The notes: generated from the letters alone by a model not told the origin. Shown: positions 25,591 through 29,455, counted from the stretch's first letter. The stretch is 64,000 nt of DNA from an uncultured Planctomycetaceae bacterium (GCA_963815195.1 CAWFGE010000021.1:1-64000); one strand, 5' to 3'. Made by a program: numbers and translations.

Positions 25591-26244
25591 TTAAGGCGCC
25601 GTCTGTTCATACACAACCCGCTGGGTCGTGTCGGTACTGATCAGCCCGCTCTGCGAATAGTAGCGAACCTGTTTGAGCACGAATTTTTTCACGCGGTTCT
25701 CGCCGAAGCCCACCTTGGAATTCTTCACCGACACGTCCGGGGAATACAGAGTGAAGGCGGTCTGCGACGTGGACACGGACGTCTTAAAGTAGCCGATGCC
25801 AAACACGCCCCACGTGTTGGGCGAGCTTCCGTTCTTGACTTCGAAGACGATGTCCCCGCCCGTGAGCGTCATGGTCATTGAGTAGGTGATGACTTCGTCC
25901 GGGGTGCGCAGCGGCCCGGTCTTCGGGTGCACCATGTAGGTCAGATTGGTGTCGCTGCTCCAAATCTGGAGGCCCATGCCGCCGGCTGTGTAATCCGGCA
26001 GCGTGGAGTGGTTCATTTCGAAGATGCAGTGCACGTCTTCCAGGCGGTCCGTGGACGACATGGCGGTGATAATTTGGGGCGATTCCCCCGCCGGGTCGGG
26101 CGTACCGATTTGGACTTCCCAATCCTCTTCAACGCGAACGATGTCCTGGGCAGACGCCTGATCGACGAAGGCCAGGCCGGCGAGCACGGCGATTCCGGCC
26201 GAGAGGTACGACAACAGATGGCGGCTAAACAATCGTGGCAACAT
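25591..26244 (-). CDS. Secreted hypothetical protein
   Basis: Signal peptide ending ASA|QDIVRVEEDWE; beta-rich mature part. Confidence 0.75.
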   Translation of the reverse strand: MLPRLFSRHLLSYLSAGIAVLAGLAFVDQASAQDIVRVEEDWEVQIGTPDPAGESPQIITAMSSTDRLEDVHCIFEMNHSTLPDYTAGGMGLQIWSSDTNLTYMVHPKTGPLRTPDEVITYSMTMTLTGGDIVFEVKNGSSPNTWGVFGIGYFKTSVSTSQTAFTLYSPDVSVKNSKVGFGENRVKKFVLKQVRYYSQSGLISTDTTQRVVYEQTAP

Positions 26245-26743: not shown

Positions 26744-26877
26744 TTTAACGCAAAGGCGCAAAGGCAAAACGAAGGCCGCAAAGAAAAACAAAAATCGACA
26801 TTTCGAACTCGCCTCCGCTTGGTTTCCGGGTTCCAATTCGTGTTTTCCTTTGCGCCTCTTTGCGTCTTTGCGTTAAA
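26744..26877. repeat. REP-like inverted repeat (CGCAAAG family)
   Basis: TTTAACGCAAAGGCGCAAAGG ... CCTTTGCGCCTCTTTGCGTCTTTGCGTTAAA. Confidence 0.8.
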
Positions 26878-26921
26878 TGCCTTTTCTGTTTTGGATTTGG
26901 CAACACGAAGGACGAACCGAC

Positions 26922-28232
26922 ATGGCCTACTTTCCCGACATTCCGAAAATCCCCTACGAAGGCCCGGAGACGAAAAATCGGCTCGCGTTCCGGCATTACA
27001 ATCCCGAAGAAGTCGTCGAAGGCCAGACCATGCGGGATCGGCTGCGGTTCAGCGTGTGTTATTGGCACACCTTCCGCGGCACCGGCTCGGATCCGTTCGG
27101 CGCCGCGACGCTTCAAAGGCCTTGGGACGACGGCTCCAACTCCGTCGAAAACGCCCTGAAGCGCGTGGACGTCGCCTTTGAGTTCATCGAAAAAGTCGGC
27201 GCGCCGTTTTATTGTTTTCACGACCGCGACGTGGCTCCCGAAGGCGCCAATCTCGCGGAGACCAATCAAATCCTGGACACCGTCGCCGCCAAATTGAAAG
27301 AGGCCCAGGAGCGGACGGGCATCAAGCTCCTGTGGGGCACGGCGAATTTGTTTTCGCATCCCCGCTACCTGCACGGGGCGGCCACCAGCTGCAACGCCGA
27401 CGTGTTCGCCTACGCCTCGGCCCAGGTGAAAAAGGCCATCGAAGTCACCCAGGCTTTGGGCGGTGAGAATTATGTGTTCTGGGGTGGCCGGGAAGGTTAT
27501 ATGAATCTTTACAACACCGACATGCGCCGCGAGATGGAGCATCTGGCGAACTTCATGCACATGGCGGTGAAACATGCCGAGTCGATTGGGTTCAAAGGCC
27601 TGTTCCTCTTCGAGCCGAAGCCCAAAGAGCCCACGAAGCACCAATACGATTTCGACGCGGCCGCGTGTTTGAACTTCATCCGGGCTTACGATCTGGAAGA
27701 GCACGTCAAGCTCAACATCGAGACCAACCACGCCACGCTCGCGGGCCATACGATGATGCACGAACTGGAATACGCCCGCATCCAGGGGGCGTTGGGCAGC
27801 ATCGACGCGAACACCGGCGATCTCTTGTTGGGCTGGGACACCGACCAGTTCCCCACGGACCTCTACCTCACCACGCAGTGTATGCTCATCATCCTGAAGC
27901 AAGGCGGCCTCGCGCCCGGCGGCGTGAACTTCGACGCCAAGGTCCGCCGGGAAAGCTTCGAGCCGATCGATTTGTTCCACGCCCACATCGGCGGCATGGA
28001 CGCGTTCGCGCGGGGCCTCAAAATCGCCGCCCGCATCCGCAAAGACGGCGTGCTCGACGAGATCATCGACCACCGCTACCGCAGCTACGATACCGGCATC
28101 GGGCAAAAGATCGACCAGAACGCCACGAGCTTCGCCGAGCTGGAAAGCTACATGCTCGAAAAAGGCGAAGCCGCCCCGAACGAAAGCGGCCGGCAGGAGA
28201 TGCTCGAGAACATCATCAACGATTACCTCTGA
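26922..28232 (+). CDS. xylA: Xylose isomerase (class II)
   Basis: [68 protein letters not shown]. Confidence 0.98.
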
Positions 28233-28249: not shown

Positions 28250-28297
28250 CCGCGAACCGGCACAGCGAAAACGCTGCCGCCGCTTCGCGGTTTTTTT
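28250..28297 (+). terminator. Rho-independent terminator after xylA
   Basis: CCGCGAA...TTCGCGG stem followed by T7. Confidence 0.7.
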
Positions 28298-28301
28298 ATG
28301 G

Positions 28302-28485
28302 ACTCAAACCGCAAGTTGGGGGGAGGGTGGCTGGGCGCAAAGGAATGGTTCGAACGAAAAACGCATTCCGAAATCTGGGGCCATGGGAATTGTTTCTCTC
28401 GCGTCCATCGCCCCAGGATTCGCTTGCCTAACTCGATTCATAGAGGAAGCTCCGCCCCAGCCACCCACCCGCCTACAGTTTGAGT
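28302..28485. repeat. REP/MITE-like inverted repeat
   Basis: ACTCAAAC...GGGTGGCTGGG paired with CCCAGCCACCC...GTTTGAGT. Confidence 0.75.
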
Positions 28486-28546
28486 TATGGAGAACGCGCC
28501 GTTTTTGGTGATGATCTCGGGAAACCGGCAACTTGCAAAAATCGGC

Positions 28547-28573
28547 GAACCTCAAAGGCCCGGCCCTCGTCTA
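28547..28573 (+). promoter_or_regulatory. Putative ECF-sigma promoter GAAC-N17-CGTCTA
   Basis: Generic ECF -35 AAC / -10 CGTC pattern ~20 nt upstream of the tRNA-Cys-like gene. Confidence 0.45.
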
Positions 28574-28593
28574 TCAAAGCAGACGCAAAACGC

Positions 28594-28666
28594 GACGTCG
28601 ATGCCTGATGGCCGGGCGGCTGCCTGCAAAGCAGCCTCAGAGTGGGTTCGATTCCCGCCGGCGTCT
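28594..28666 (+). tRNA. Non-canonical tRNA-Cys(GCA), no encoded CCA
   Basis: Acceptor GACGTCG/CGGCGTC, U73, anticodon arm GCTGC-CTGCAAA-GCAGC, T arm GTGGG-TTCGATT-CCCGC; A8 and G14 replace U8/A14. Confidence 0.8.
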
Positions 28667-28856
28667 CTTCCTCCTCATGGATTAGCCGGCGGGCGCTCGC
28701 CCTGGTTGTTTGGGCAACCGGACGCGAGCGACTCATCCAAGCCAATGAGGATTCAGGCAAGCCCCGATTGGTTTCGCACGTCCAGCGGCACTCTCCGCCC
28801 GCGTTTGGCGGTCGCGGGAGCGTGTTCCGAACATGGCCTCTAAACGGCGAACTCAA

Positions 28857-28932
28857 TCTGATGTAGCTCAATGGGAGAGCACCAGACCATCAAATCTGGA
28901 AGTTGCGGGTTCGACTCCCGTCATCGGCTCCA
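28857..28932 (+). tRNA. tRNA-like gene of undetermined identity (8-nt anticodon loop CCATCAAA), CCA encoded
   Basis: TCTGATG-TA-GCTC AATGGGA GAGC-A-CCAGA CCATCAAA TCTGG-AAGTT-GCGGG TTCGACT CCCGT-CATCGGC-T-CCA. Confidence 0.75.
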
Positions 28933-29108
28933 AGATGGCTCGTAACCATCCTGACCATGCAGATGCGAAAGCATCCACCAGCGGCCCGCGGGAGGCGGGC
29001 GTTCGTTTGATCCGCCTGGTTTGGCGGGATGTCTCTGGTTTCAGGGGGACCGTGCTCGTCCGCCGGTAACGGAACAACGAGCCGAATTCGATCAACCCGC
29101 TGGCAGGC

Positions 29109-29136
29109 TTGCATTGGGCGGGTTGTCCTTTATACT
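29109..29136 (+). promoter_or_regulatory. Putative sigma70 promoter of rpmB-gatCAB
   Basis: TTGCAT-N16-TATACT, 55 nt upstream of rpmB. Confidence 0.55.
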
Positions 29137-29191
29137 ACGGGTTTCCTCATCGGACGAAACAAGGCTTCACCATTTTTGATAAGGTCAGGCG

Positions 29192-29455
29192 ATGAGCCAG
29201 AGATGTGATGTTTGCGGAAAGTCCGCCCGGGTCGGCAACCGGGTCGAGCAGCGTGGGAAACCCAAATACCTGGGCGGGAACGGCCGCAAAACCACCGGAA
29301 TCACCAAGCGGAAATTCAGACCGAACCTGCAAAAAATCCGCGTGCAGGAAGGCGACGGCGCCGTCAGCAAAAAGGTCTGCACGCAGTGCATCCGCAGCGG
29401 CCGCGTGCAGAAAGCCGTCGTCCGCCAGCCGTTTACGTTGCCCAAGCAGTCGTAA
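29192..29455 (+). CDS. rpmB: 50S ribosomal protein L28
   Basis: MSQRCDVCGK...GN...TKRKFRPNLQK...VCTQCIRSG. Confidence 0.97.
   Translation: MSQRCDVCGKSARVGNRVEQRGKPKYLGGNGRKTTGITKRKFRPNLQKIRVQEGDGAVSKKVCTQCIRSGRVQKAVVRQPFTLPKQS

Follow-up and report, generated by a model that had tools for sequence, protein, structure and literature searches.

A spare tRNA-Cys and an apparently orphaned tRNA-like module in an uncultured planctomycete: likely front part of a class-wide Band-7 operon

A cassette of two tRNA-like genes and associated structured RNA, lying between a xylose-isomerase-like gene and rpmB in the genome of an uncultured Planctomycetaceae bacterium, is real and non-random. Taken as a whole, it is judged with somewhat better than even confidence to be the front part of a class-wide Band-7 operon, carrying a spare tRNA-Cys and a non-decoding tRNA mimic; this explanation is built on homology, conserved architecture, covariation and a common promoter motif. 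The first gene is a spare tRNA-Cys of the L-array family and probably functional. Comparative sequence evidence makes the second, called X here, an orphaned member of a band-7-associated tRNA-like RNA family, set within structured RNA whose pairs covary strongly. "The window" below is the whole stretch of 64,000 nt that was analysed, and coordinates without a contig or locus prefix are counted from its first letter.

Layout and borders of the cassette

The assembly that includes the window (G000) is 8.87 Mb in 25 contigs and 94.6% complete, with 97 tRNA genes and with tRNA arrays of 9 genes on contig C5, 12 on C8 and 21 on C12. In the window itself ARAGORN finds exactly two tRNA-like genes, tRNA-Cys and X, separated by a spacer of 189 nt (Table 1). 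An earlier note, made from the sequence alone, had described both genes and a promoter-like motif ahead of them, and the sequence, ARAGORN and Rfam all place them where it did. It had also seen no credible ORF in the cassette, and this holds: six ORFs of 74–128 aa overlap the region, none of them with a Pfam match at E ≤ 0.01. A small ORF after X was considered and rejected, an indel between G000 and its congener G001 shifting the frame and Pfam giving no match. A permissive Rfam scan of positions 28400–29250 gave nothing credible besides the two tRNA matches (next best E 0.25).

On the left the cassette is bordered by a dispersed MITE-like repeat with inverted ends. By blastn, its own genome has more than 100 copies of 66–88% identity, some of them in tandem, for example at C18:266109–266614 and C10:237772–238368. 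Homology to G001 extends from about 28522 to 29051, at 83–88% identity over the cassette. Among 40 related genomes searched at the DNA level, G002 has the cassette as well, and matches in other genera and families cover tRNA-Cys, X and about 100 nt downstream. The block comprising rpmB and its upstream region lies outside the element and is 92–95% identical to G001 contig C23, which has no cassette.

These comparisons trim what had been proposed for the regions around X. The spacer was described as about 190 nt of hairpins, and its length is as given, but about 50 nt of it (28681–28730) is a second dispersed repeat, with dozens of copies of 76–93% identity in its own genome, that is missing at the same place in G001. 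Some 180 nt of nested stems were proposed after X; the stretch 28933–29051 is indeed conserved, but the sequence from 29102 on is the rpmB upstream block. A link to translation genes, read from the proximity of rpmB, is accidental: G001 has the cassette and the rpmB upstream block on separate contigs, and the placement ahead of rpmB is not a conserved one.

Right after the xylose-isomerase-like gene (26877–28232) there is a terminator-like hairpin with a T run (28276–28299, + strand), which suggests that there is no read-through into the cassette from upstream. Elsewhere in the window, a c-di-GMP-I-GGC riboswitch aptamer (Rfam RF03167; 26272–26348, − strand; 65.2 bits against a threshold of 59) lies directly upstream of a 217-aa ORF without a Pfam match (25591–26244, − strand).

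Table 1. Features of the cassette and its borders, with pair counts for the helices of X and domain D.
Feature	Position	Strand	Basis	Details
Dispersed MITE-like repeat, ~170 bp	28302..28490	.	blastn, own genome	Cassette left border
ECF-type promoter-like motif	28547..28573	+		−35 GAACC 28547–51, −10 CGTCTA 28568–73
Array-type tRNA-Cys(GCA)	28594..28667	+	ARAGORN, Rfam	U73, no encoded CCA, A8 replacing U8
Dispersed repeat, ~50 nt	28681..28730	.		Between tRNA-Cys and domain U
Domain U, ~90 nt	28767..28857	+	MAFFT alignment, 36 sequences	
U closing helix, 11 bp	28767–77 with 28847–57	+	MAFFT alignment	
U pairing CCA with UGG	28782–84 with 28834–36	+	MAFFT alignment	
U pairing CGG with CCG	28786–88 with 28827–29	+	MAFFT alignment	
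U variable hairpin; conserved single strand	28790–28822; 28837–46	+	MAFFT alignment	
tRNA-like module X	28857..28932	+	ARAGORN, Rfam	8-nt anticodon loop CCAUCAAA, encoded CCA
D arm of X			Fitted alignment	100% of cells paired; compensatory change in 1/4 pairs (3 invariant)
Anticodon arm of X			Fitted alignment	98.9% of cells paired; compensatory change in 4/5 pairs
T arm of X			Fitted alignment	99.5% of cells paired; compensatory change in 2/5 pairs
Hairpin P1 (GAUGG, loop CUCGUAA, CCAUC)	28934..28950	+	Fitted alignment	97.1% of cells paired; compensatory change in 4/5 pairs
Hairpin P2, GAAA tetraloop	28962..28975	+	Fitted alignment	93.5% of cells paired; compensatory change in 4/4 pairs
Conserved motif (GGGAGGCGGGCG ... 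GAUCCGCC) and end of G001 homology	28976..29051	+	Invariant columns; G001	88% identity to G001
Short hairpin within 28976–29051	29010–29030	+		
rpmB upstream block and rpmB (29192–29455)	29102..29455	+	Pfam Ribosomal_L28	Outside the element

The tRNA-Cys gene and its array relatives

The tRNA-Cys gene scores 39.1 bits with the Rfam tRNA model (gathering threshold 29; E 1e-4 over the 64-kb window). G000 has two more tRNA-Cys genes: the one at C8:272711 is the housekeeping copy, with a different, ordinary sequence, and the other, which closes the C12 array, shares 88% identity with the window gene. The earlier note took the window gene for non-canonical and named plain decayed tRNAs among the findings that would refute its reading. 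It belongs instead to a conserved array-type family in which the GCA anticodon and U73 are invariant (53 of 53 distinct sequences), the acceptor stem has seven pairs and the stems covary, and it is neither aberrant nor decayed. In relatives, the ordinary genes of a long array usually end with the array-type tRNA-Cys (..., Arg-TCG, Arg-GCG, Cys-GCA), and by ARAGORN X comes next; the arrays include an HNH endonuclease gene (PF01844). Array genes for tRNA-Leu, in the C8 and C12 arrays of G000 and at locus L017, are 74–78 nt long and are without the long variable arm expected of a bacterial tRNA-Leu.

The arrays correspond to the L-arrays of Santamaria-Gomez et al. (2021; PMC8421152). In the available text of that paper, Planctomycetes are among the phyla with L-arrays, and the L-array of Anabaena, its linked HNH gene and rtcB are co-induced by translational stress. 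The likeness to the present case lies in supernumerary tRNA arrays with HNH genes and in common regulation of array, HNH gene and rtcB, as well as in the 88% identity of the window tRNA-Cys to an array gene and in a promoter motif common to three arrays (below). There are also differences: besides X the window has a single true tRNA and no long dense run, and control in Anabaena is described as relying on 9-nt direct repeats, compared with an ECF-like promoter motif in G000. The terms "tRNA-like", "band 7" and "SPFH" do not occur in the main text of PMC8421152.

A promoter motif and a candidate regulon

The motif upstream of tRNA-Cys consists of GAAC (28547–28550), 17 nt and then CGTCTA. ECF promoters have a GAAC-type −35 and a CGTC-type −10 element about 16–17 nt apart. 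Among G000, G001 and G002, GCGAACC and TCTA are invariant and the 18 nt between them vary freely. The pattern GAACC-N14-17-[CG]GTCTA or C[CGT]TCTA has 25 matches in the whole of G000. Five of these stand 10–253 nt ahead of the C5, C8 and C12 arrays (measured to the first gene of each), a tRNA-like gene on C16 and the window tRNA-Cys; by estimate, about 0.06 such placements would be expected by chance. With its boxes conserved around a variable spacer, and with the same motif heading all three tRNA arrays of the genome, the ECF-like promoter proposed in the earlier note is supported.

A looser motif, [CG]CGAACC-N16-17-GTC, is not specific alone (203 matches compared with about 123 expected). 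It occurs 94 nt before archease-rtcB on C1, a site examined on a prior hypothesis. At a further site, spotted afterwards, it stands 88 nt ahead of the HNH gene at C8:492485, whose N-terminus matches that of the array-linked HNH proteins. The archease-rtcB pair (C1:68545–70553), on another contig than the cassette, stands behind GCGAACC-N17-GTC; its rtcB is read in two frames, the switch near 69.93 kb being due to a frameshift or to an error in the assembly. The presence of the motif before three arrays, the tRNA-like gene, the HNH gene and archease-rtcB suggests an ECF-controlled stress regulon that would join tRNA replacement and RNA repair.

The tRNA-like gene at C16:6206–6279 (L251 307–379) scores 47.5 bits with the Rfam tRNA model. 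In place of an anticodon loop it has a UUCG tetraloop, carried by a 6-bp stem, and it begins 72 nt after a GCGAACC...GTCTA motif; it is possibly another tRNA mimic of the putative regulon.

Module X and its family

X scores 49.5 bits with the same model (threshold 29; E 1.4e-7 over the 64-kb window), with canonical D and T loops and six of seven acceptor pairs. It breaks tRNA rules, as had been noticed, in its 8-nt anticodon loop, which is the G001 loop plus one A, and in a U1.C72 mismatch. Family statistics were taken from 91 parsed distinct sequences, and triplets from the 86 of these with 7-nt anticodon loops; three more have loops of 6 nt and two, including that in the window, loops of 8 nt. 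The body of X stays the same while its triplet differs in almost every genome, with 34 different anticodons among the 86. Bacteria avoid A34 outside tRNA-Arg, and here it is found in 27 of 86 (31%). Acceptor pairs 5–7 are formed in 90 of 91 sequences, while pairs 1–4 are paired in 26, 33, 44 and 52 of 91, close to the 37.5% that chance would give. Position 73 is C in 39 sequences, A in 26, G in 16 and U in 10, and CCA is encoded in 32 of 91. With N73 and the top of the acceptor stem so unconstrained, X would have no constant aminoacylation identity. The drifting triplet, the variable N73 and the presence of only three conserved acceptor pairs bear out the non-translational reading offered earlier for this gene, and by these family data X is not a decoder tRNA.

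Other features of the family are kept. The D-loop GG and T-loop UUCGA are conserved in the alignment, U33 is retained in 67 of 86 sequences and a purine at position 37 in 82 of 86, and none of the 86 has a stop anticodon, compared with 1.9–4 expected. U33, purine 37 and the absence of stop anticodons are not obviously needed by a pure structural mimic. A partner in cis for the anticodon loop was sought and rejected: the longest complementary match to a locus's own leader had a mean length of 5.06 nt, compared with 4.67 nt to the leaders of other loci, and had no fixed place.

Frameshift-suppressor tRNAs of the sufA6 and sufB2 type have 8-nt anticodon loops. The window X resembles them in having such a loop in an otherwise tRNA-shaped molecule and differs from them in that the extra base is specific to G000, in a family without fixed anticodon or identity elements. 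G000 has another tRNA gene with an 8-nt anticodon loop at C20:220635–220709 on the − strand (ARAGORN "cgct").

Covariation in the flanking domains

Domain U, upstream of X, was aligned for 36 sequences with MAFFT, blind to any structure. In this alignment 89.4% of cells are paired, compared with 77.3% after shuffling and 33–43% with the partners slid. Both sides have changed in 21 of the 24 pairs (119 cells), and none of 500 shuffles reached the observed values. The frequent G-U pairs in U point to an RNA read from the + strand. Pair counts for X and for the hairpins P1 and P2 in domain D, downstream of X (Table 1), come from an alignment fitted to a covariance model and so lean towards the model's own structure; P1 is also predicted on an unfitted MAFFT alignment. 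The earlier note had argued from intact stems for selection on structure and had asked for a covariation test on related loci. Such selection finds support, with U covarying by the shuffle test and P1 and P2 in the model-fitted alignment.

Other candidate structures fared less well. The conserved GGGAGGCGGRCG...GAUCSGCC stretch gave no supported helix or terminator, helices 7 and 8 of the fitted alignment being weak. Pairing of the conserved UCUGA of U with the anticodon stem of X, inspected by eye in the alignments, had no covariation, and the distal GGCAGCAC...UGCAG motif does not have the spacing to be read as a sigma-54 or sigma-70 promoter. The G000 copy of this last motif lies in the rpmB block, so that the resemblance is probably due to chance.

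The covariance model R1, built from X and the 90 nt or so that follow it (proximal D), scores 88–169 bits at 36 loci, compared with roughly 55–65 bits for ordinary tRNAs. At E ≤ 1e-17 it matches in 37 of 151 genomes of the planctomycete class and in one of 144 labelled only "same phylum". On viral contigs a loose pattern for U gave at least 120 matches, and R1 confirmed none of the 80 loci examined. No Rfam family matches X as a band-7-associated tRNA.

Linkage to Band-7 genes and its loss in this genome

At 24 of 37 loci X is followed by a gene of about 368 aa with an SPFH/Band_7 domain (PF01145, E 5e-31), starting 315–460 nt from the end of R1 in 20 loci and 809–1360 nt from it in four. For a test in the reverse direction, 80 loci from named genomes were chosen by their SPFH/Band-7 protein alone; the records are from Planctomycetaceae, Pirellulaceae, Pirellulales, Thermoguttaceae and others, including Planctomicrobium sp. 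SH664 and Adhaeretor mobilis HG15A2. An R1 match was found upstream on the same strand in 68 of the 80, at a distance of 289–500 nt in 57 of these, and three of the 12 misses have less than 350 nt of flank. Upstream of the 68 there is an array-type tRNA-Cys within 320 nt in 39 and a promoter motif directly before U in 11; the flank is too short in six, and the remaining 12 have some other arrangement. Among the first 37 loci, the promoter motif is directly before U in 14, a tRNA T arm is there in 16 and neither is in seven. No locus has both, so promoter and upstream tRNA are mutually exclusive, and in 12 of the 14 loci with a promoter before U it lies 27–29 nt before the CCAGCGGC anchor. This placement of promoter and tRNA, together with the spacing from X to Band-7, gives a unit of promoter, optional array, U, X, D and Band-7 gene. 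The unit is widespread in this class, and the cassette is fairly likely to be its front part. Where the earlier note saw a self-contained unit, the cassette would be the head of an operon, here without its Band-7 gene.

What follows the Band-7 gene is more varied. Of 69 loci where the flank reaches 700 nt or more, just four have RNA-repair genes within the next two ORFs on the same strand: an RNA ligase (L055), RtcA (L065), RtcB with RtcA (L090) and two RlaP genes (L114). The other 65 have unrelated genes there. Locus L061 has two copies of X plus D on one contig (1620–1781 and 4851–5017), flanking the Band-7 gene. At loci L038, L039, L042, L044 and others, the GGAGG ribosome-binding site of the Band-7 gene is directly preceded by a covarying hairpin, as read from the alignment, which may be a translational control element.

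In G000 the gene after X is rpmB, not Band-7. No Band-7 orthologue was found in the 94.6% complete assembly (tblastn best E 0.049), the ten Band_7 genes of G000 being other paralogues, so that the proposed partner of X is missing here. Without an adjacent Band-7 gene, although one is present with X at 68 of the 80 loci in relatives, the window X is an orphaned homologue. What the window keeps is the promoter with tRNA-Cys, U, X and proximal D, while distal D and the Band-7 gene are gone, perhaps through a deletion or rearrangement beside the MITE-like repeat. With the partner missing, X would either still serve the regulon as an orphan, archease-rtcB having the same promoter motif, or be a relic in the first stages of decay.

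Comparison with described tRNA-like RNAs

SPFH/Band-7 modules with "a novel tRNA-like molecule" as scaffolding cofactors were reportedly described by Burroughs and Aravind in 2016. In the available text of Wang et al. (10.1101/312249), which credits the prediction to Burroughs and Aravind (2016), the b7a-tRNA is strongly tRNA-like and adjoins a Band-7 protein and RtcB; it is described as not validated and as possibly functionally redundant with the Ro60-bound tRNA mimic YrlA. The occurrence of X at 68 of 80 Band-7 loci fits a band-7-associated tRNA, an identity that rests on this secondary description. Shared with it is a tRNA-like ncRNA beside a Band-7 gene in relatives; an RtcB, RtcA, RNA ligase or RlaP gene is adjacent in four of 69 loci. 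The window X differs in being without a Band-7 gene. Beyond that description, as far as the available text gives it, planctomycete X sits between covarying U and D, often ends an array and follows an ECF-like promoter. A literature search found no description of a U-X-D element in planctomycetes, and found b7a-tRNA named in 10.1101/312249 alone.

YrlA (Rfam RF02553), bound by Rsr/Ro60, is similar in having a tRNA-like D/T elbow in a larger ncRNA tied to RNA-repair genes. X differs from it as a contiguous cloverleaf with a full anticodon arm and no identified Ro-binding stem, and Rfam scans gave no YrlA match in the window. A sub-threshold YrlA match (31.9 bits against 69, E 3.5e-4) lies elsewhere in the genome, at C12:575834–575935 (L252 2935–3036), among tRNA fragments just after the C12 array.

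Proposed mechanism and alternatives

The full operon would consist of an ECF-type promoter, an optional long array usually ending in Arg-GCG and Cys-GCA, then U, X and D, and the SPFH/Band-7 gene. When the cognate ECF sigma factor is active, a transcript would start about 10 nt before tRNA-Cys, and RNase P and 3' processing would release a chargeable spare tRNA-Cys. U-X-D would be the band-7-associated tRNA, a tRNA mimic acting with the Band-7 scaffold, and by analogy with Ro60 and YrlA the two could serve RtcB or RNA-ligase repair of cleaved RNAs. The stress transcript, the release of tRNA-Cys and the pairing of mimic with scaffold are inferred from homology, promoter sharing and the literature. 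Against this reading stand the absence of a Band-7 orthologue in G000, the rarity of RNA-repair neighbours (the four of 69 loci above) and the split rtcB. A more specific form of it, put forward tentatively, is that U-X-D is an undescribed composite RNA of several hundred nt with an anticodon-free tRNA-mimic core, a partner or sensor of the Band-7 scaffold within one ECF regulon that would join tRNA replacement by L-arrays to RNA repair by archease-RtcB and HNH.

U-X-D could also act in cis, as a leader or processing signal at which RNase P and RNase Z cut the array transcript from the Band-7 mRNA, its hairpins setting the 5' end of that mRNA or controlling read-through. The G000 copy would on this view be left over from the operon, and may now pass transcription on towards rpmB. 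The fixed order and strand of X and Band-7, at 289–500 nt in 57 of 68 loci, would be expected of such a leader, as would a promoter that lies before U or before the array and never between, an unconstrained triplet and the covarying hairpin that directly precedes the GGAGG site. RNase P and RNase Z, however, need no anticodon arm, and X keeps one with U33 and purine 37; with only three conserved acceptor pairs it would be a poor RNase P substrate, and no conserved terminator/antiterminator pair was found. A role purely in cis is held to be rather doubtful.

The alternative that the cassette in G000 is a decaying relic without present function, kept only by recency, is regarded as unlikely. It would account for the loss of the Band-7 gene and distal D, the repeats inserted inside and beside the cassette and an 8-nt anticodon loop otherwise nearly absent from the family (two of 91). 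Yet all helices are intact in G000, and promoter boxes, tRNA-Cys, U and X are 83–88% identical to G001 while the promoter spacer and the linker from Cys to U have diverged freely. One difference between the two genomes in a U stem, as read from the alignment, is moreover compensatory (G-C in one, A-U in the other).

That X is a working decoder with an expanded loop, a +1 frameshift or UGA suppressor reading AUCA or UCA, is very improbable: the 8-nt loop, encoded CCA, six of seven acceptor pairs and canonical D and T loops in G000, and the lack of stop anticodons in 86 relatives, would suit it, but the loop is one base shorter in G001 and has 7 nt in 86 of 91 sequences, and the orthologues have 34 triplets, 31% of them with A34.

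Implications

According to the available text of 10.1101/312249, b7a-tRNA is only a computational prediction, and it has no Rfam family. To this the planctomycete loci add about 100 sequences with strong covariation and two flanking structured domains, as well as a promoter motif common to tRNA arrays, an HNH gene and archease-rtcB, and G000 is a natural case of the RNA persisting without the Band-7 gene. The composite-RNA reading, if true, would link two separate literatures and give b7a-tRNA a defined, covariation-supported structure. Cultured relatives with the full module are at hand in Planctomicrobium sp. SH664 and Adhaeretor mobilis HG15A2. It is now testable whether the spare tRNA arrays of these bacteria and their RNA-repair modules belong to a single stress response, and what role a tRNA mimic without a fixed anticodon may have in it.
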